In this document: positions 27,955-36,028 of the stretch, piece by piece
How positions within the stretch are numbered: the first letter of the stretch is position 1
Layout: each line of letters opens with the position of its first letter
Position numbers and translations under genes: made by a program
Notes under the pieces: model-generated
The model's input: the letters and a program-made list of their open reading frames with translations, nothing else
Told to the model about the DNA's origin: nothing
Database searches by the model: none
Source of the DNA: Candidatus Omnitrophota bacterium
Lineage (GTDB): Bacteria; Omnitrophota; Gorgyraeia; Duberdicusellales; 4484-171
NCBI GenBank assembly: GCA_021735655.1
Contig: JAIPGM010000002.1
Location: forward strand, 192,001-256,000
Direction: 5' to 3'
Length of the DNA: 64,000 bases

Positions 27955-29238
27955 ATGAAAAAAATACTTAAGTTTACTGCTATCATTGTCTTATTGTTGT
28001 TTGTTTTTGGCTGTTCTGGTCAAAAACCTAAAGACGGCACAGTGGTCGTTTGGCATTGGATGACCGACAGAAAAGATGCTTTTTTAGAGTTAGCTAAAAA
28101 GTATCAGGCTGAAACCGGCGTAACTGTTGAATTTAAACTGCTATTTCCTCCGGAAACCTATTCAATGAAGGTTACTGCCGGAGCCCGAGCAAAAACCCTA
28201 CCTGATATTTTTGGTATTTTAGGTGAGAAAAAAACAGTTGGTTCGTTCATTCGGGCAAAGCATATATCTGATCTTACTTCCGATATGACTGCTGATTCAA
28301 AAACATGGCAGAAACGTTTTTACCCTCAAACTTTAGATGTAGTTGTATTTAAGAAAAACAATTATTCTGGTGTCAAACCGGGAATATACGGTGTCCCAAT
28401 AGATACTACGGTTATGCAGTTTGTTTATAACAAATCACTTCTTAATGATTTAGGCTTGCCAGGACCTCCGGAAACTTTTGAGGATTTTATCAACTATGCA
28501 AATCGAGTAAAAGAAAAAGAAAAAACTTTCGGTTTTGTTTGTGGCTGGGGTGAAGGCTGGTTGCTTAATGCTTTAGCGACTGAATGGGCAATAAACCTTA
28601 TGGGGGAAAAGAAGTTTTTAAGTACCCTTGAAGGGAGTGTTTCTTATACTGACCCTGACTGGATAAAGGTTTTTTCATTATTCGAGACCTTGCGTAACTC
28701 CGGCATTCTTTCACCGAATATCGCGACTATGACCAACAAAGAGTCAGAGAATGCTTTTTCTAAAGGCAAAGCTTTGTTTTCTTTTAATGGTAGTTGGTCA
28801 ATGAATGTTTATGCACAACTTAATCCCGAACTTAATTATGGCTTTTTTTCACTTCCCAAGGTTTCGAAAAATTATCCGGTAAAGGTTTGGGGAGGTTCAG
28901 GAACCTCGTTTATGGTTAATGACCGTTCTCCTAATAAGGACAAAGCCATTGAATTTCTTAAATGGTTAACCAAAAAGGAACAACAGATCTTTTTGATTAA
29001 GGAAACTAACAATCTGCCGGCGATTAAAGGCTGTGAAGATCAGATGTCAGAAAGGCTTAAAAAACTTACTTTAAATTTAAATAACCTTACTCATCCTGAT
29101 GTTTGGCCGGGCAATGAGGATTCAAGGGTAATTGAATCTTTGAATCGTGGCCTGCAGCAAATAGTCATGGGCCTCAAAAAACCTCAAGAGGTTGCTAAAG
29201 AGGTGCAGGAAAAGAAAGACAAAATTGTAAAAAGATGA
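27955..29238 (+). CDS. sugar ABC transporter substrate-binding lipoprotein (SBP family 1)
   Basis: Lipobox FGCSG; SBP_bac_1-like; GGGAGG RBS. Confidence 0.75.
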   Translation: MKKILKFTAIIVLLLFVFGCSGQKPKDGTVVVWHWMTDRKDAFLELAKKYQAETGVTVEFKLLFPPETYSMKVTAGARAKTLPDIFGILGEKKTVGSFIRAKHISDLTSDMTADSKTWQKRFYPQTLDVVVFKKNNYSGVKPGIYGVPIDTTVMQFVYNKSLLNDLGLPGPPETFEDFINYANRVKEKEKTFGFVCGWGEGWLLNALATEWAINLMGEKKFLSTLEGSVSYTDPDWIKVFSLFETLRNSGILSPNIATMTNKESENAFSKGKALFSFNGSWSMNVYAQLNPELNYGFFSLPKVSKNYPVKVWGGSGTSFMVNDRSPNKDKAIEFLKWLTKKEQQIFLIKETNNLPAIKGCEDQMSERLKKLTLNLNNLTHPDVWPGNEDSRVIESLNRGLQQIVMGLKKPQEVAKEVQEKKDKIVKR

Positions 29239-30149
29239 ATTCTTCGGTAAAAGAGAATAGCGTAAATTTTTCATTCATTTTTCCAGCCCTTTTTATTTTT
29301 TCGGTTTTTTATATCTACCCCTTCTTTTACAGTTTCATTTTAAGTTTAACTAATTATGATCTGATTGGAGATTTTAACTTAAAAGAATACTATATCGGCT
29401 TTGGTAATTTTCAAGACGCCTTAACCGACAAAGACTGGTGGAGTTCGATGTATAACGGAGGCTTCATCACCTTTTGGGCTTTGACTTTTCAAAATATTTT
29501 AGCATTTGCTTTAGCTCTTGCTGTCGATAAGGTAGTACGGTTAAAGAAATTTTATCGAGTCGTATTTTTTATTTTGCCGGTTCTTTCAGAAATTATAATC
29601 GGTTTATTAATGAAACAACTTTTGATTGGTGAGCCTATCGGCAGGGATGTGTTTAATCATATTTTAACTAACCTCCATTTGGGATTTTTAGCTCAGGATT
29701 GGATTGGCGGAGAGAATGTACGTCTGGTTACGGCCTTAGTCCATTGCTGGAAAGGCTTTGGGTGGGCGTTTGTTATATTTTTTGCTGGTTTACAAACTAT
29801 TCCTGAACAACTATACGAGGCAGCAAAAATTGACGGCGCTGGAGCCTGGCAGCAATTTCGTAAAATTACCGTCCCTTTGCTTATGCCCGTCATTACTCTA
29901 ATTATTGTTCTTACAATATTAGGCACTATGCAGGCCTTTGCTATGATCTTAGCTTTAAATGCCGGGGCTGGAGGCCAAACGACGGTGCCGGTTATGATTA
30001 TTTTTTCTCATATTGGCGGAGCCAGTAAGCTGGCCGGGCTAGCCTGCGCCGAGGGTCTTATTCTAGGGGTGATGCTGGTTATAGTTTCATTTACTATGTT
30101 TTTTGTTTCCAAAAAAGTAAAGGAAAAATATGGTGTATTACCGAGCTAA
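29235..30149 (+). CDS. sugar ABC transporter permease (MalF/UgpA-like)
   Basis: EAA loop AAKIDGAGAWQQFRKITVP; 6 TM. Confidence 0.8.
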   Translation: MNSSVKENSVNFSFIFPALFIFSVFYIYPFFYSFILSLTNYDLIGDFNLKEYYIGFGNFQDALTDKDWWSSMYNGGFITFWALTFQNILAFALALAVDKVVRLKKFYRVVFFILPVLSEIIIGLLMKQLLIGEPIGRDVFNHILTNLHLGFLAQDWIGGENVRLVTALVHCWKGFGWAFVIFFAGLQTIPEQLYEAAKIDGAGAWQQFRKITVPLLMPVITLIIVLTILGTMQAFAMILALNAGAGGQTTVPVMIIFSHIGGASKLAGLACAEGLILGVMLVIVSFTMFFVSKKVKEKYGVLPS

Positions 30150-30969
30150 GAAAATAGTCACTTTAATTATTTTACATACATTTCTTTTTAGTGTTGCCTT
30201 GAGTTGTATTTTTCCTTTTTTCTGGATGATTAACGTATCCTTAAAAACTCAAAGCCAATATGATGCTGACTCAGGCTTAAAAATTTCTAGTTCTTTAAAT
30301 TGGGACAACTATTACAAAGTAATAGTTGAAGGTGAATTTTGGCGTTATATTGTTAACAGTGTTATTTATACGTTCTCTACGGTTATTTTTATTGTTCTTG
30401 TATCTTCTTTAGCCGCCTATGGATTTTCCCGTCTTCATTTTCCCGGTAAGAATATTATCTTTTTTATGTTTTTGGCGGCGATGATGATACCGCTTCCAGC
30501 CGGTTTTGTTCCAGTGTATGCACTCTTGCAACAACTAGGTCTCTTAAATCGAACCGGATATGTTTTAGCTATGACAAATATCGGTCTTTCTTTCAGTATC
30601 TACCTTTTAAAAACTTTTTTTGACCAATTGCCGCGCGATCTTGAGGATGCAGCCAGAATGGACGGTTGCACCAAGTTTCAAATTTATTGGCATGTTGGTT
30701 TGCCTTTAGTTGCTCCAGCTCTTGGCGTAGTTGTTATTTTCAACGCTTTAAATGTTTGGAATGAGTTTGTTTTAGCTAAACTTATATTTACTGACGAACA
30801 ATTTATGCCCCTTCAAGCTGGATTAATGGAATTTACTGGGAAAATGGTAACCCAACACACTCTGATCATGGCCGCTTTAACCATAGCGGCTCTTCCGATA
30901 ATTCTATTGTATATTAAGATGCAAAAGCAATTTATTAAAGGGCTTACTGCCGGAGCAGTGGTAGGATAA
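30130..30969 (+). CDS. sugar ABC transporter permease (MalG/UgpE-like)
   Basis: EAA loop DAARMDGCTKFQIYWHVGLP. Confidence 0.8.
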   Translation: MVYYRAKKIVTLIILHTFLFSVALSCIFPFFWMINVSLKTQSQYDADSGLKISSSLNWDNYYKVIVEGEFWRYIVNSVIYTFSTVIFIVLVSSLAAYGFSRLHFPGKNIIFFMFLAAMMIPLPAGFVPVYALLQQLGLLNRTGYVLAMTNIGLSFSIYLLKTFFDQLPRDLEDAARMDGCTKFQIYWHVGLPLVAPALGVVVIFNALNVWNEFVLAKLIFTDEQFMPLQAGLMEFTGKMVTQHTLIMAALTIAALPIILLYIKMQKQFIKGLTAGAVVG

Positions 30970-33284
30970 TGAAAACTATAGTTAAAAATTTAATTTTACT
31001 TTTATTTCTATCTAACCTCTTAATAGTTGAAAGTTACTCTCAAGAAACTGCGAAACTTGAGAAGTCCAAACATGTTAATAGTGCTTGGTCTCTACGCGGT
31101 CAGAAAAAATACGAACAAGCCTACGAAGAAGTAGACGCTTGCATTGCTAACCTGACTGATAATGCTAATCGCCTAGCGAAAGCTTTAACTGGGCCAACCG
31201 ATGAAGTTAAAAAATCTAGCTATCAAAATATGAATGATATTGCTGAATGTTACTTTATTAGAGCTGAAATATTTCGTGATCAGACAAAGTATGAGGAAGC
31301 TAGTAAAGCTTTCAGCGTCATTATTGAAAAATATCCTTACGCTCAGTGCTTTGACCCCCGGGGCTGGTTTTGGTCTCCGGCCAATGCAGCAAAAGACGCT
31401 ATAAAGGAAATAGCTAATGTTAAACTAGAAGAAAAAATTACCATCGAACCAGAGGTTCCAATCAGTCTTTACGACCCCGGGTTGGAATTCCCGGTTGATT
31501 ACTTAAAATATGGTGAATTTAAAGGTGAGGGAACTGAAGATTACGAATATATTACTAGTGACCCAATAGGCCTATCTAAAGCTGTTGGTGAGGGAATTTA
31601 TCCAAACACTAGTTCGATTAAATTTGATCCAGGATTCATTGCGATCAAGAAAACACTTTCTAGTATTGACCACTGGAAGATCTTAAATAGCCGAAACTTA
31701 AAATTAGCTTTTTATAAGTGGAATATGGCTCCTGAGCCTCAGGGAGTGAAGCAATTTCATTTAGCGGAAATTTTAGAAAGAAGTGGCCTGGTTGAATCGG
31801 CGATAAAAGCTTACTATGCTGCATTGGTTCATTTTCCAAAAAGTTATGGCTGGACTTATTGGCATACACCTTGGTATGTATCTAAGGTGGCACTTTACCG
31901 AATAAAATATTTACTTAAAAAAAATCCCGAACTCAATCTTGCTCTCGAAGGAGCTGAAGTTAAAATAATTAACGGCTACGATAACGATATTCGTAATGAT
32001 ATCTTCTTAGTCAGCCCAGGTCGTTTAGTCGCACTTTCATTCTGGGAAAAAAGCTTCATTGACAACTCTTGTTCTGCTCGCAAGCAAAAACTTGGAGAAG
32101 TTGTTAAGAGTAGCGGAAATATAATTAAACTAGTCAATTATCAACCCGGAGGATGGCAACTATTGTTAAATGATAAGCCATTTATGGTCAAAGCAATAAC
32201 TTACGGACCTACTAGAGTTGGAGAATCTCCTGATGATGGTAGTATGCAGAACTGGACTACTCAGGATTTAAATGAAAATGGAATTATTGACTCAGGTTTT
32301 GAAACTTGGGTTGATAAAAACCAAAATAATCTTCAAGATGAAGGGGAAAAAGTGGTTGGCGATTTTGCTCTTCTTAAGCAAATGGGGGCTAACTCGATTA
32401 GGCTCTATCATCAGCCTCTAGAATTAAATAAAAAAATTCTTCGACAAATGTATGAAAAATATGGTATATATGTACTACTGGGTGATTTCCTTGGTAAATA
32501 CGCCTTAGGTAGTGGTGCAGATTGGGACCCAGGAACCGATTATGATAATCCGGACCAAAAGCAGAAAATGCTTGAAAGTATTGAGAAAATGGTCCGAGAG
32601 TTTAAGGATGAACCCTACGTTCTGATGTGGCTTTTAGGTAACGAAAACGTTTATGGTCTAGGATGTAATGCTGACAAGAAGCCAGAAAGCTTCTTTAAAT
32701 TTGCTAATGAGGCAGCCCGCCTCATTAAGTCTTTAGATCCAAAAAAGCGTCCAGTAGCCATTGTTTCAGGGGATATTCTGTATTTAGATATCTTTGCTAA
32801 AAATTGCCCTGACATTGATATTTTTGGTACCAATGCTTATCGGGGAAAATATGGGTTTTTAGATATTTGGGATGAAGTTAGCCGAGTTGCGAATAAAGCA
32901 ACGATGATAACCGAGTATGGTACTTCTTCTTATGCCAAGGGTTACTCTTTGGAGGAAGCTGAACAATACCAAGCCGGCTATCATCGAGCTTGTTGGGAAG
33001 ATATAATCTGTAACTCTGCTGGTTTCGGAGCTGGAAATGCCGTTGGCGGAATAGCTTTCGAATGGATAGACGAGTGGTGGAAGGCGTATAAGCCTGCTTA
33101 CCACGATCGTAAAGGTCTTTTTAGCGGGCCGTTTCTTGATGGATATATGCATGAAGAATGGCTTGGTGTCTCTGGTCAGGGCGATGGAAGTAAATCACCT
33201 TATTTGCGCCATTTAAAAAAGTCTTATTTTACGTACAAAGAACTTTGGAATCAACCTTGCGAAGAAAGGGTAAGTAAAAATTAG
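30969..33284 (+). CDS. secreted two-domain protein: N-terminal helical (TPR-like) domain plus C-terminal clan GH-A TIM-barrel glycoside hydrolase (family uncertain)
   Basis: Signal peptide; LLGNENVYG (acid/base region), ITEYGTSSY (nucleophile region), FEWIDEWWK shared with paralog 34646-36028. Confidence 0.55.
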   Translation: MKTIVKNLILLLFLSNLLIVESYSQETAKLEKSKHVNSAWSLRGQKKYEQAYEEVDACIANLTDNANRLAKALTGPTDEVKKSSYQNMNDIAECYFIRAEIFRDQTKYEEASKAFSVIIEKYPYAQCFDPRGWFWSPANAAKDAIKEIANVKLEEKITIEPEVPISLYDPGLEFPVDYLKYGEFKGEGTEDYEYITSDPIGLSKAVGEGIYPNTSSIKFDPGFIAIKKTLSSIDHWKILNSRNLKLAFYKWNMAPEPQGVKQFHLAEILERSGLVESAIKAYYAALVHFPKSYGWTYWHTPWYVSKVALYRIKYLLKKNPELNLALEGAEVKIINGYDNDIRNDIFLVSPGRLVALSFWEKSFIDNSCSARKQKLGEVVKSSGNIIKLVNYQPGGWQLLLNDKPFMVKAITYGPTRVGESPDDGSMQNWTTQDLNENGIIDSGFETWVDKNQNNLQDEGEKVVGDFALLKQMGANSIRLYHQPLELNKKILRQMYEKYGIYVLLGDFLGKYALGSGADWDPGTDYDNPDQKQKMLESIEKMVREFKDEPYVLMWLLGNENVYGLGCNADKKPESFFKFANEAARLIKSLDPKKRPVAIVSGDILYLDIFAKNCPDIDIFGTNAYRGKYGFLDIWDEVSRVANKATMITEYGTSSYAKGYSLEEAEQYQAGYHRACWEDIICNSAGFGAGNAVGGIAFEWIDEWWKAYKPAYHDRKGLFSGPFLDGYMHEEWLGVSGQGDGSKSPYLRHLKKSYFTYKELWNQPCEERVSKN

Positions 33285-33364
33285 AATTACAGAAACACGA
33301 AATAACCACGGGAAGTGTAAAATTTCTGTAATTCTAGTAAGTAGTTAAGGTAGTCCGTGGTTAT
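33282..33364 (+). promoter_or_regulatory. interleaved perfect inverted repeats (14 bp and 10 bp) in the GH1-to-CBM-like intergenic region; candidate RNA pseudoknot or switch
   Basis: TAGAATTACAGAAA 33282-33295 pairs with TTTCTGTAATTCTA 33323-33336; ATAACCACGG 33302-33311 pairs with CCGTGGTTAT 33355-33364. Confidence 0.5.
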
Positions 33365-33386
33365 AAGAAAAGAGGAGGTTCACGAA

Positions 33387-34577
33387 ATGGGCAAAAGACT
33401 TTTGTTGAGCATTTTCTGTTTTGTTGCGGCGACTGGATTTGTCGTAGGCAGCTATGCCTTGAGTGGCGAATGTTTGGCTGTAGATAATTTCTTTGTCTAT
33501 ACCGACAAAAATTCACCACAGAATAACTTTATTCCTAGTGGTTGGATGGGTGACTATGGGGATTTGCGGATGAACGACCAGGCAACTGATGAGTACGCTT
33601 CTGGAGCAACCTCAATTAAGATCACCTATACCGCAAAAAAAGCCCAAAATCAGGGCTGGGCTGGTATTTTCTGGCAATCAGCACAAGGCAACTGGGGCGA
33701 GAAAGATACTGGAATTGATTTAAGTCGTTACAACAAGCTTGTTTTAAAAGCTAAGGGTGAAAACGGCGGCGAGGTAATAACCAAAATAAAGGTTGGTGGA
33801 ATTACTAATAATTCAGCTACTGGAGAGCCAGTATCTTTTCCTGACACTCTTGATGTAGAATCGGGACCAATACGCCTAACTAATGACTGGCAAGAATATT
33901 CTATAAATCTTGCTGAGCAAGATTTATCTAACGTTAACGGCGGCTTTGCTATAATTTTCAACGTTGATCATGCTGAAGGTGGACAAACAATCTATCTAGA
34001 TGAAATTCACTTTACTTATGATGCCGGACTAAAAAAAGAAGAAGCAAGAGTTAATCTTCCTTTTTATGTTTATGCTGATTCAAACTCTTTAGACAATCAC
34101 TTCATTCCCAGTGGTTGGATGCCGGCAACTGCCGCAAGAGATTTGCATATAAACACAAATTGGAAAAATTACCCTTTTTCAGGTGACAGCTCGATAAGAG
34201 TTGAATACAAAAATGAATCAGGAACACGTTGGGCTGGCATCTATTGGCAGCAACCGGCAAATAACTGGGGAACAGTACCTAATGCTGGATATAATCTTCA
34301 AGGGGCCAGCAAACTTACTTTTTGGGCTCGTGGAGACAGCGGAGCTGAAGTAATCAATGAATTCAAAGTTGGAGGAATTTCCAGCGGCGAGTATATTGAT
34401 TCTGACAGTGCCAGTATCGGCCCAGTTCAGTTATCTCCTGAATGGAAAAAGTATGAGATTGATTTGACCGGTAAAGACCTTTCATACATTATTGGTGGTT
34501 TTTGCTGGGCAACTAACATCGACGTAAACGATCCAGAAGGAATAGTATTTTACCTCGATGAAATTGCTTACGAATAA
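33387..34577 (+). CDS. secreted protein with two tandem about 190-aa CBM-like repeats (start moved to ATG after AAGAGGAGG RBS)
   Basis: Signal peptide; repeats share FIPSGWM, WAGI(F/Y)WQ, NWG, KVGGI and YLDEI blocks. Confidence 0.6.
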   Translation: MGKRLLLSIFCFVAATGFVVGSYALSGECLAVDNFFVYTDKNSPQNNFIPSGWMGDYGDLRMNDQATDEYASGATSIKITYTAKKAQNQGWAGIFWQSAQGNWGEKDTGIDLSRYNKLVLKAKGENGGEVITKIKVGGITNNSATGEPVSFPDTLDVESGPIRLTNDWQEYSINLAEQDLSNVNGGFAIIFNVDHAEGGQTIYLDEIHFTYDAGLKKEEARVNLPFYVYADSNSLDNHFIPSGWMPATAARDLHINTNWKNYPFSGDSSIRVEYKNESGTRWAGIYWQQPANNWGTVPNAGYNLQGASKLTFWARGDSGAEVINEFKVGGISSGEYIDSDSASIGPVQLSPEWKKYEIDLTGKDLSYIIGGFCWATNIDVNDPEGIVFYLDEIAYE

Positions 34578-34591
34578 ACGGAAATAATAAA

Positions 34592-34621
34592 CCCTACTAG
34601 AGACTTTGTTCTCTAGTAGGG
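34592..34621 (+). terminator. perfect 12-bp stem hairpin (CCCTACTAGAGA/TCTCTAGTAGGG, 6-nt loop) downstream of the CBM-like gene
   Basis: Direct inspection; followed by AT-rich, T-containing tract. Confidence 0.5.
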
Positions 34622-34645
34622 CAGTCTTAATTTAAATTTTATTTT

Positions 34646-36028
34646 ATGTTTAAAAACTTTAAATTTACTTGGGCTAATTTTAAAATAGACAGAAAACGTG
34701 CTCAACGTCTTTGTGTAGCATTCATTTTTTTAATGCTGATTGGAATATTTGGCTATCTTTTAGCTTATACCCGTTTTTTAACCCTTCAATCTAAAACGAT
34801 AAGCCTTATTTCTCTGAACAAAAAATTAACAGCTAAACTTAAAAATTGTCGGGAGCGACTTGAATTATGTCAAGATCGCTTTGTAAAAAAAGTTGAAATA
34901 ATCCCTAATTCTTGCGGTGGTTACAACTTTTATGTTAAAGGAAAACCTTTTCTAGTAAAAGGCGTAGGCTATAATCCTACGCCAATAGGTAAAGGTTACG
35001 ACTATGAACTTTTCAGCGATGAGACTAAACCTTGGCTCGTTGACGGTAAACTTATGAAAGAGGCCGGCATAAACTGTGTCCGTATTTATTCAACTGGTAG
35101 TGATTTAGAAAAAGTTAAAGAATTTATCAGTGATATGTATGAAAAATTTGGTATTTATACTTTAGTTAGCGATTGGCTAGGATTGTGGGATTATCCACGA
35201 GCAAACTATGCCGATCAAAAATTTCGTGAACGAACTAAGAAAAGAATTTTAGGAATCGTTGAAGCCTTAAAAAATGAAGAAGGCCTATTAATGTGGATCC
35301 TTGGTAATGAAAATAACTATACCTTTTCCGGGCGTATTGGATTTTGGACTTCAAATGAAATCGAAAAGCTTCCTGAAGCTTGTGATAAGCAAAATAAACG
35401 CGCTGAGATTTACTACAGTTTTGTTAATGACCTCACTTTAGCGATTAAAAAAATAGACCCGTTGCATCCAATAGCTTTAGGCAATGGTGAGGCTAACTTT
35501 CTTCAAATTGCCTCTCAACAGGCCAAAGATGTAGATCTTCTAGCAATAATTATCTATCGTGGTAAAAGTTTCGGTAATTTATTCAATAGCGTTCGTCACT
35601 CTTTCGATAAACCGATTATGCTTTCAGAATTTGGCTCCGATTCTTATGATGCTTATCGTGAGAAGGAAGACCAGGATATTCAATCTGAATTTTTAATTTC
35701 GCAGTGGAAAGATTTGTATGCTAATACCACAATCAGCGGTAACTGCGAAGCAAATGCGATCGGTGGGTCTCTTTTTGAATGGAATGATGAGTGGTGGAAG
35801 CATAATGAGGGTTACAGCGATGGCTGGAGCATCCACGATACCGAAGCTGGCTGGTCTCACGGAGCCTATTTTTTTGATATTCGTGCCAAAAATAATTTGA
35901 ATATGAATGAAGAATGGTTTGGTATCGTTAGCTTAAGTAAAGACAAGGAAAATGGAATAAATAAAAGGAATCCTAAAAAGTCTTACTACGATCTTCGTAC
36001 TTTTTTCGGCCAACCTTATACCGATTAA
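34646..36028 (+). CDS. membrane-anchored clan GH-A glycoside hydrolase, paralog of the C-terminal domain of 30969-33284
   Basis: N-terminal TM; ILGNENNYTF, LSEFGSDSY and FEWNDEWWK motifs. Confidence 0.55.
   Translation: MFKNFKFTWANFKIDRKRAQRLCVAFIFLMLIGIFGYLLAYTRFLTLQSKTISLISLNKKLTAKLKNCRERLELCQDRFVKKVEIIPNSCGGYNFYVKGKPFLVKGVGYNPTPIGKGYDYELFSDETKPWLVDGKLMKEAGINCVRIYSTGSDLEKVKEFISDMYEKFGIYTLVSDWLGLWDYPRANYADQKFRERTKKRILGIVEALKNEEGLLMWILGNENNYTFSGRIGFWTSNEIEKLPEACDKQNKRAEIYYSFVNDLTLAIKKIDPLHPIALGNGEANFLQIASQQAKDVDLLAIIIYRGKSFGNLFNSVRHSFDKPIMLSEFGSDSYDAYREKEDQDIQSEFLISQWKDLYANTTISGNCEANAIGGSLFEWNDEWWKHNEGYSDGWSIHDTEAGWSHGAYFFDIRAKNNLNMNEEWFGIVSLSKDKENGINKRNPKKSYYDLRTFFGQPYTD

Follow-up and report, generated by a model that had tools for sequence, protein, structure and literature searches.

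A probable mRNA hairpin and its candidate pseudoknot partner between a glycoside hydrolase gene and a carbohydrate-binding gene in a small sub-clade of Omnitrophota

The 64,000-nucleotide stretch of DNA considered here, hereafter the window, derives from a Candidatus Omnitrophota bacterium (contig JAIPGM010000002.1, positions 192,001 to 256,000 of the forward strand) and carries two interleaved perfect inverted repeats at 33282-33364, in the spacer between a glycoside hydrolase (GH) gene and a gene for a secreted protein with two tandem domains of the carbohydrate-binding module (CBM) type. We consider it highly probable, on the strength of compensatory changes among relatives, that the first repeat forms a selected hairpin in the forward-strand mRNA, and we lean, with a good deal less assurance, towards pairing of the second repeat with the loop of that hairpin. 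The explanation that we prefer overall, if tentatively, is that of a pseudoknotted hairpin serving as an element for selective RNA processing and stabilisation (SRPS) of the CBM cistron, and by analogy with better known operons its function might lie in stability, processing or expression tuning. The element is real but local, being confined to one small Omnitrophota sub-clade.

The first stem (S1) joins TAGAATTACAGAAA (33282-33295, forward strand) to its perfect reverse complement TTTCTGTAATTCTA (33323-33336), giving 14 bp around a loop of 27 nt, and can be extended to arms of 25 nt with 80% complementarity (33271-33295 with 33323-33347). The second stem (S2) joins ATAACCACGG (33302-33311), which lies within the loop of S1, to its perfect reverse complement CCGTGGTTAT (33355-33364), giving 10 bp across a separation of 43 nt, and is longer by one G.U pair, G33312-U33354, such that the full arms occupy 33302-33312 and 33354-33364 of the forward strand and the four arms follow one another in the order arm1-arm2-arm1'-arm2'. 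A repeat search recovered exactly the sequences and coordinates of the two repeats as they had been given in the initial annotation of this DNA, made from the letters alone; the distance of about 7 nt that it placed between the S2 3' arm and the ribosome-binding site (RBS) of the downstream gene is here corrected to 5 nt, counted to the Shine-Dalgarno (SD) sequence AAGAGGAGG (33370-33378, forward strand), which lies outside both helices, is invariant among relatives and is followed by the start codon ATG at 33387. The stop codon TAG of the 771-aa GH open reading frame (ORF), at 33282-33284, does supply the first 3 nt of the S1 5' arm, as had been remarked, but this overlap is specific to the window, S1 beginning 13 nt and 2 nt past the stop in the related loci L001 and L002, respectively. 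The short sequence CACGAAAT is present twice in the window, at 33296-33303 between the 5' arms of S1 and S2 and again at 33381-33388, where it runs into the start codon (CACGAAATG); neither L001 nor L002 has kept it, and the duplication is probably a matter of chance.

One question then is how far such an arrangement exceeds what base composition alone would produce. Perfect inverted repeats with stems of 10 bp or more and loops of up to 60 nt number 13 in the window, compared with 7.8 +/- 2.8 in 300 dinucleotide shuffles, and in the same shuffled windows a repeat of at least 14 bp occurred in 5% and any interleaved pair of repeats in 2%. Given a 14-bp hairpin, an interleaved perfect 10-mer arose in 3.8e-4 of 400,000 shuffles. 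The 10-bp repeat by itself is thus at chance level and the 14-bp repeat borderline, and the earlier contention that the repeats are very unlikely by chance holds for the interleaved pair but not for either repeat taken singly; the two combined are improbable, at about 2e-5 per window if, as we have done, the shuffle figures are simply multiplied. Since these statistics by themselves are too weak, the comparison with relatives was used as the decisive test.

The comparison set comprised some 180 syntenic Omnitrophota loci, including 79 genome loci together with metagenome loci, and the gene order GH, tandem-CBM, GH is kept in essentially all of them. Four close lineages are represented in the collections, namely the window itself, L080-L084 (89% protein identity), L001, which is the same as L085 and L175-L181 (84%), and L002, which is all but identical to L165 (81%); the protein tree groups them as ((window, L080), (L001, L002)), and the strain-level contigs of P0002 are all identical and brought in no further sequence with the element. 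Both helices, in the same interleaved order, are present in the window, L001 and L002 only (3 of the ~180 syntenic loci), and scans of the genome and metagenome collections, a search with the GH C-terminus aimed at short contigs and look-ups of individual contigs brought to light no further lineage bearing the element. L080, the closest relative, retains TAGAAAACAG and GACCACGGGG and has lost the 3' arms of both stems, that of S2 by deletion; its spacer forms an alternative, interrupted hairpin of ~20 bp. In L166, the next outgroup, a further and different hairpin follows the GH stop, such that every member of the sub-clade, L080 and L166 included, possesses some hairpin at this place, and in lineages at 74-78% identity no trace of the element was seen. 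The initial annotation had named a lack of conservation in relatives as the observation that would speak against it, and such a lack is what we find across the phylum at large but not within the immediate sub-clade.

Homology searches lead to the same picture. A covariance model of the element matches only its training sequences and the remnant in L080 (31.9 bits); with filters off, it revealed no second copy in the 64-kb window, and nothing convincing in ~820 kb of sequence from relatives. Two further matches, in L057 (26.8 bits) and L059 (20.6 bits), fall inside GH2 coding sequence and were treated as chance, as were weak matches elsewhere. Likewise, a search of 32800-33900 against Rfam 15 at E values up to 10 yielded only sub-threshold matches of at most 17.7 bits, none of them over 33282-33364, and at the gathering threshold 12 relatives returned only tRNAs.

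The four-fold degenerate sites of the adjacent gene are 37-47% identical among the window, L080, L001 and L002; neutral positions are therefore saturated, and the blocks of the spacer that are conserved over the same distance are being maintained. Automatic MAFFT alignments misplaced the arms owing to insertions and deletions in the loops and were replaced by an alignment anchored on the arms and padded with N, a procedure that leans towards structure. In this alignment the invariant blocks of the spacer are ACCACGGGAA, TCTGT.ATT, TCCGTGGTT and the SD region, while the loops vary in both sequence and length. A 10-bp core of S1 (33284-33293 with 33325-33334) is paired in every row and includes two double-sided changes, G33284-C33334 becoming A-U in L002 and U33288-A33330 becoming C-G in L001 and L002; two more pairs vary via G.U, and at the inner edge of the stem an A-U pair is replaced by U.G in L001. 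Paired cells amount to 80% in register, as against 37-47% after sliding the partners by 1-3 columns, and RNAalifold independently returned the same 10-bp core and the same two covarying pairs. Because the compensatory changes are double-sided and accompanied by G.U pairs, S1 is best understood as a hairpin of the forward-strand RNA. The covariation for which the initial annotation had proposed to look is thus borne out for this stem across the three lineages.

The position of S2 is somewhat different. Its two arms are the best-conserved blocks of the spacer besides the RBS, and a 9-bp core (33304-33312 with 33354-33362) is paired in every row, eight of the pairs being invariant and one varying to G.U; the spacing of the half-sites changes between lineages, from 45 to 49 to 53 nt. 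That two conserved 9-mers should be exact reverse complements by accident is very improbable (~4e-6 per position pair by our own estimate), and it is for this reason that pairing of S2 appears likely. The G.U pairs, together with the variable spacing of the S2 arms, argue for a structure acting in RNA rather than a DNA operator.

Folding calculations are consistent with the coexistence of the two stems. The fold in the window has z = -3.6, and the stand-alone energies (S1 and S2, in kcal/mol) come to -13.7 and -13.1 for the window, -12.7 and -12.0 for L001 and -8.6 and -10.1 for L002. In nested-only ensembles enforcing S1 costs at most 0.7 kcal/mol and enforcing S2 costs 2.3-7.4 kcal/mol, S1 being dominant in two of the three lineages. 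The gain from adding S2 onto S1 was estimated in the manner of RNAup, by adding the S2 duplex energy to the cost of opening the two arms of S2 in an ensemble constrained to contain S1; this estimate, which is rough and not pseudoknot-aware, gives 5.7-11 kcal/mol, or 0.2-5.5 kcal/mol with a harsher penalty of the Dirks-Pierce kind. The connecting loops measure 6-18, 5-9 and 14-18 nt over the three lineages, which, to judge from pseudoknot geometry, should suffice to cross the grooves of helices of 10-14 bp, and an H-type pseudoknot is then the plausible default expectation from such modelling if S2 forms at all. For the H-type pseudoknot raised in the initial annotation, therefore, the geometry is possible and the energy favourable by a rough estimate, while S2 lacks covariation and its 3' arm is gone in L080. 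The other possibility raised there, of two mutually exclusive hairpins or a switch, finds no such footing: S1 and S2 have no nucleotides in common and for that reason do not compete for bases, S1 prevails in the nested ensembles of two lineages out of the three, and conservation reveals no alternative pairing. In every predicted fold the SD sequence and the AUG are unpaired, and S1 lies 50-105 nt 5' of the AUG in the window, L001 and L002, a place that is taken by other hairpins in L080 and L166.

We propose, then, that both repeats may constitute a single cis-acting structure in the forward-strand polycistronic mRNA of a sugar-uptake and GH operon. The S1 hairpin, for which the covariation speaks, forms right after the GH stop codon, and its loop block ACCACGG(G) would probably pair with UCCGUGGUU just 5' of the SD sequence of the next gene, producing an H-type pseudoknot that leaves the SD sequence single-stranded. 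Such a structure could act as an SRPS element of the type described for the papBA and cip-cel operons, with endonucleolytic cleavage in or before the spacer, or alternatively it could simply be a barrier and insulator. In either case it would provide a compact 5' cap for the tandem-CBM cistron, the 3' end of which would be closed by a 13-bp hairpin at 34591-34622 (forward strand), located by the repeat search and the terminator scan 14 nt past the stop codon of that gene and before the second GH gene. This second hairpin looks like a terminator-like structure, attenuator or 3' stabiliser within the operon, to go by its sequence; nearly all lineages have a hairpin at the equivalent 3' position, mostly with a U-rich tail behind it, and those of L080, L001, L002, L166, L086, L003, L008 and L012 have entirely different stem sequences. 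The consequence would be that the glycan-binding, non-catalytic protein is made in excess over the flanking enzymes. Of the functions suggested in the initial annotation, a processing or stability signal is accordingly the one that fits best, the processing itself being proposed by analogy. A string AAAUU (RN|WUU-like) at 33277-33281 is non-specific in a sequence of 37% GC.

Several observations weigh against this proposal. The stems are AU-rich and of only moderate stability (-13 to -14 kcal/mol each in the window); the independent lineages that bear the element are only three, the C-G change common to two of them could reflect one event, and it was we who anchored the alignment on the arms; and no double-sided change occurs in S2 over these three lineages. 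Since L080 has lost the 3' arms of S1 and S2, the pseudoknot is dispensable, and since that lineage still has ACCACGGGG, there within another hairpin, the loop block may be conserved for some other reason. In addition, most of the phylum makes do with spacers of 3-40 nt and no structure. Finally, cleavage, stability and stoichiometry are all matters that we infer.

Of the alternatives the most serious is that only S1 is functional, as a generic stabiliser or RNase site, and that the S2 arms are conserved for unrelated reasons and stay unpaired in vivo, a view that we regard as reasonable but unlikely. It would account for the missing covariation in S2 and for the presence in L080 of the 5' block without a 3' arm, as well as for the occurrence of some hairpin past the GH stop in every member of the sub-clade. 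It could also draw on the resemblance of GGGTGACCACGGGGGTTGAT in L080 to GGAGGTGACCGTACGCGGGTGAAT in L055, and on the ~20 distant spacers that have AAGGAGGTGAT or AAGGGGGTGAT soon past the GH stop. The improbability of the exact complementarity of the two 9-mers nevertheless tells against it, as do the rough energy estimate, which favours S2, and the A-to-G substitution in the L001 5' arm, which keeps the pairing as G.U.

A second alternative, which we think distinctly doubtful, is a translational operator, in which a protein or a small ligand binds the pseudoknot and represses or activates initiation at the tandem-CBM gene; the operators of L20, S15, S4 and T4 gene 32, together with the small pseudoknot riboswitches, provide models for such a mechanism. 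The 3' helix of S2 ends 5 nt before the SD sequence, at -33 to -23 from the AUG, in the upstream part of the 30S footprint, and the interleaved topology beside the SD is kept in three lineages. Moreover, the blocks ACCACGGGAA and GUAGU(N)CCGUGGUU are conserved more than pairing alone demands, and ACCACGGG, common to the four close lineages, has outlived its partner in L080, as a motif contacted by a protein or ligand might. Known pseudoknot operators also directly adjoin the SD sequence that they regulate (PMC1888825). Against this, the SD sequence and the AUG are free in all predicted states, no curated riboswitch or leader is matched at E values up to 10, the element has a very narrow range and has disappeared from the closest relative. 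Among the operon products (solute-binding protein, permeases, GHs and the tandem-CBM protein) there is no evident RNA-binding protein, and no conserved multi-helix aptamer core is visible. The bolder form of this idea, a previously undescribed lineage-specific pseudoknotted operator in which some trans factor (protein, small RNA or sugar-derived ligand) makes contact with the loop block ACCACGGG(A/G), seems to us slightly less likely still. If true, it would amount to a new class of cis-regulatory RNA in the Omnitrophota, to our knowledge a phylum without characterised riboregulators, and one that sets the translation of a secreted glycan-binding protein.

The terminating ribosome has a footprint that reaches ~12-15 nt downstream, and a translation-coupled two-state switch could be imagined in which the ribosome, on reaching the GH stop, opens the 5' arm of S1, re-partitions the spacer between S1 and S2 and thereby ties downstream expression to translation of the upstream gene. 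The S1 5' arm, beginning 0, 2 or 13 nt past the stop in the three lineages, does lie within or at the edge of that footprint, and the stand-alone energies of the two stems are alike. Such a switch is nonetheless improbable, because neither stem, sharing no nucleotides with the other, excludes it, no alternative partner for the freed arms is conserved, and the SD sequence is free in all states, leaving no evident output.

More improbable again is a DNA-level or non-functional repeat, such as an operator palindrome, a cruciform, a remnant of a miniature inverted-repeat transposable element (MITE) or repetitive extragenic palindrome (REP), or a by-product of template switching. Quasi-palindrome correction can generate perfect arms in AT-rich DNA, the 10-bp repeat does not exceed chance when taken singly, and most relatives are without the element. 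Yet on the opposite strand, and at the level of DNA, the G.U pairs would turn into C.A mismatches; a DNA-binding dimer could not accommodate the differences of 4 and 8 bp in S2 half-site spacing from one lineage to another, and the arms are kept across saturated synonymous divergence; the element is also single-copy in the window and in ~820 kb of relatives, with no target-site duplication (flanks AAAAAT and GTAAGT). The least credible of all is an intrinsic terminator or attenuator that ends transcription past the GH gene: a stable hairpin does stand directly after the stop codon, but its stem is AU-rich, with 3 G-C pairs of 14, the 3' arm is followed by GUAAGUAGUUAAGG, the tail being GUAAGUAGUU, without a U-tract, the scan called no terminator in 33282-33386, and no promoter was found downstream of the hairpin for the conserved next gene.

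Other candidates were considered and set aside. No internal promoter was found in the spacer at the scan threshold, and TAAAAT (33318-33323), taken as a possible promoter, has no acceptable -35 and is not kept in L001 or L002. Stop-codon read-through and frameshifting were rejected, the GH frame running TAG AAU UAC AGA AAC ACG AAA UAA with more in-frame stops before the next ORF and no in-frame X XXY YYZ slippery site; the earlier suggestion that the element might gate read-through falls with them, there being no U-tract terminator and the GH frame meeting TAA seven codons after TAG. A riboswitch is unlikely in view of the narrow distribution, the loss in L080, the never-sequestered SD sequence and the missing terminator. 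A ribonucleic antiterminator of the BglG/SacY type and a CsrA site likewise seem improbable, the former for want of a terminator to antiterminate and the latter, which requires GGA in a loop, because L080 has no GGA; no sequence resemblance to either was noticed.

The genetic context of the element is a single co-directional operon. It contains a gene for a solute-binding protein (27955-29238), two ABC permease genes (29235-30969), the upstream cistron (30969-33284, forward strand) for the 771-aa glycoside hydrolase, which combines a TPR region with a GH2_C-like TIM barrel, the downstream cistron (33387-34577, forward strand) for a secreted protein of 396 aa, and a second, paralogous GH gene (34646-36028). 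The two hydrolases are ~29% identical over the TIM-barrel part, the upstream one having the TPR region as an N-terminal extra, and fragments of this upstream enzyme are named 'beta-glucuronidase' in several sources. The 396-aa protein, an internal tandem duplication, has no Pfam match and 3251 homologues, nearly all labelled Candidatus Omnitrophota and always encoded between two GH2_C-like GH genes. Its AlphaFold model, which is confident (predicted local distance difference test, pLDDT, 86), comprises a signal peptide and two beta-sandwich domains, and the best Foldseek matches are tandem CBM22-1/CBM22-2, CBM30, CBM4 and the Bacteroides surface glycan-binding protein SGBP-B. These matches of predicted structure uphold the label 'CBM-like' that the gene had first received, and they support a role for the product as a secreted non-catalytic glycan binder.

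The length of the GH-to-CBM spacer ranges from 3 to 410 nt over the comparison set, many spacers of 3-40 nt having no room for the element, and in other Omnitrophota the same spacer would appear to be filled with other devices, including promoters of sigma-70 type, other hairpins and a distal SD-like block. For example, a sigma-70-like promoter, CTTGAAA-N17-(G)TATAAT, stands there in the distant loci L024, L030, L033, L037, L038, L043 and L044, which suggests that in some Omnitrophota a promoter is dedicated to the CBM-like gene. The spacer promoters of other lineages thus point to recurrent selection for separate expression of this gene, and the sequence evidence taken together suggests that it has repeatedly been set up as its own expression unit between two GH genes.

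The spacers of the more distant loci hold further features. About 20 of them contain an extended-SD-like motif (AAGGAGGTGAT, AAGGGGGTGAT or AAGGGGGTGATG; GGAGGTGAYC), situated 5-60 nt past the GH stop and 40-200 nt 5' of the real RBS, as in L008, L012, L026, L028, L039, L040, L042, L051, L054-L057, L059, L064, L071-L075, L079, L172 and L173. Tiny ORFs follow some copies (MCLLFQQLIILELSEIV in L054 and MCDNSGSDKKLILINQ in L079, each closed by a stop codon) and other copies are without a start codon. The loop block ACGGGAAGTG of the window (ACGGGGGTTGAT in L080; compare GGAGGTGACCGTACGCGGGTGAAT in L055) may, from its sequence, be a degenerate homologue of this motif. L008 (5841-6000) and L014 (1183-1569) have in common a structured block, ATGGGAGGCGCT...GAAGGAGGTG...AGCGCTTA, with a GCGCU/AGCGC hairpin around an SD-like motif, and long GC-rich spacer hairpins occur in L014, L015, L050, L070, L072 and L078, with no Rfam match at gathering level where this was tested. 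The spacer of L060 (649-723) carries a short tandem repeat, (AAAGTGT) x4, and in L077 (2442-2711) an 89-aa GIY-YIG ORF (Pfam PF01541, E = 9e-13) is inserted in a spacer of 379 nt, which therefore tolerates the insertion of a gene.

If the SRPS explanation is right, an uncultivated, ultra-small Omnitrophota bacterium tunes the stoichiometry of a polysaccharide-utilisation operon via mRNA structure and not via a separate promoter. More generally, the ~180 syntenic loci present a single spacer that has been repeatedly refilled, by promoter, hairpins, SD-like blocks and a GIY-YIG gene, and so offer a natural experiment on the evolution of intra-operon control. The practical value of the element itself is limited, its distribution being narrow, its presence dispensable in the closest relative and its kind already well known.

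Known systems approach the proposed structure to different extents. The REP hairpins, or bacterial interspersed mosaic elements (BIME), of the malEFG spacer are likewise intercistronic hairpins of an ABC sugar-transport operon and are thought to shape segmental mRNA stability; they exist as hundreds of dispersed copies and protect the upstream cistron, whereas the present element is single-copy in all sequence examined. Small riboswitches of H-type topology (preQ1-I/II/III, SAM-II, guanidine-III) resemble it in being less than 100 nt long and lying directly 5' of the SD sequence. In these, however, the SD or anti-SD is sequestered in helix 2, the phylogenetic range is wide and the families are in Rfam, whereas the Omnitrophota element is without an Rfam match, leaves the SD free and belongs to one sub-clade only. 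In the L20 operator of infC-rpmI-rplT, and also in those of S15 (rpsO) and S4 (alpha operon), an upstream segment similarly pairs with nucleotides beside the next SD sequence, but these operators are bound by the ribosomal protein that the downstream gene specifies, and they include or adjoin the initiation region, whereas the gene next in line here encodes a CBM tandem and has an SD that stays free (PMC1888825, PMC3985624).

The closest likenesses are to systems of differential mRNA stability. In the cip-cel operon of Ruminiclostridium cellulolyticum stem-loops in the spacers are both cleavage signals and stabilisers, and the processed transcripts that are abundant have a stem-loop at either end (PMC10311766). 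As here, the operon serves polysaccharide degradation and the matter at issue is the stoichiometry of non-catalytic component and enzymes, which is set there by the spacer stem-loops (PMC10311766). The cleavage signals of cip-cel nevertheless need GC-rich or long stems, in contrast to the AU-rich core of 10-14 bp described here, and that operon belongs to an unrelated phylum, has no pseudoknot described and bears no sequence similarity to the element (PMC10311766). In E. coli, with papBA among other operons, endonucleolytic cutting takes place 5' of a hairpin, and this 5' structure and a terminator at the 3' end shield the downstream cistron (PMC5927463). The papBA-type structures of E. coli lie mostly inside the upstream coding region rather than in the spacer (PMC5927463), and the Omnitrophota element differs further in its probable extra helix from loop to downstream sequence. 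Both in papBA, as generalised by Dar and Sorek (2018), and in the present operon a stable structure in or near the spacer precedes the more-needed cistron, a terminator-type hairpin closes the favoured cistron, and the protective structure is kept among related species only (PMC5927463).

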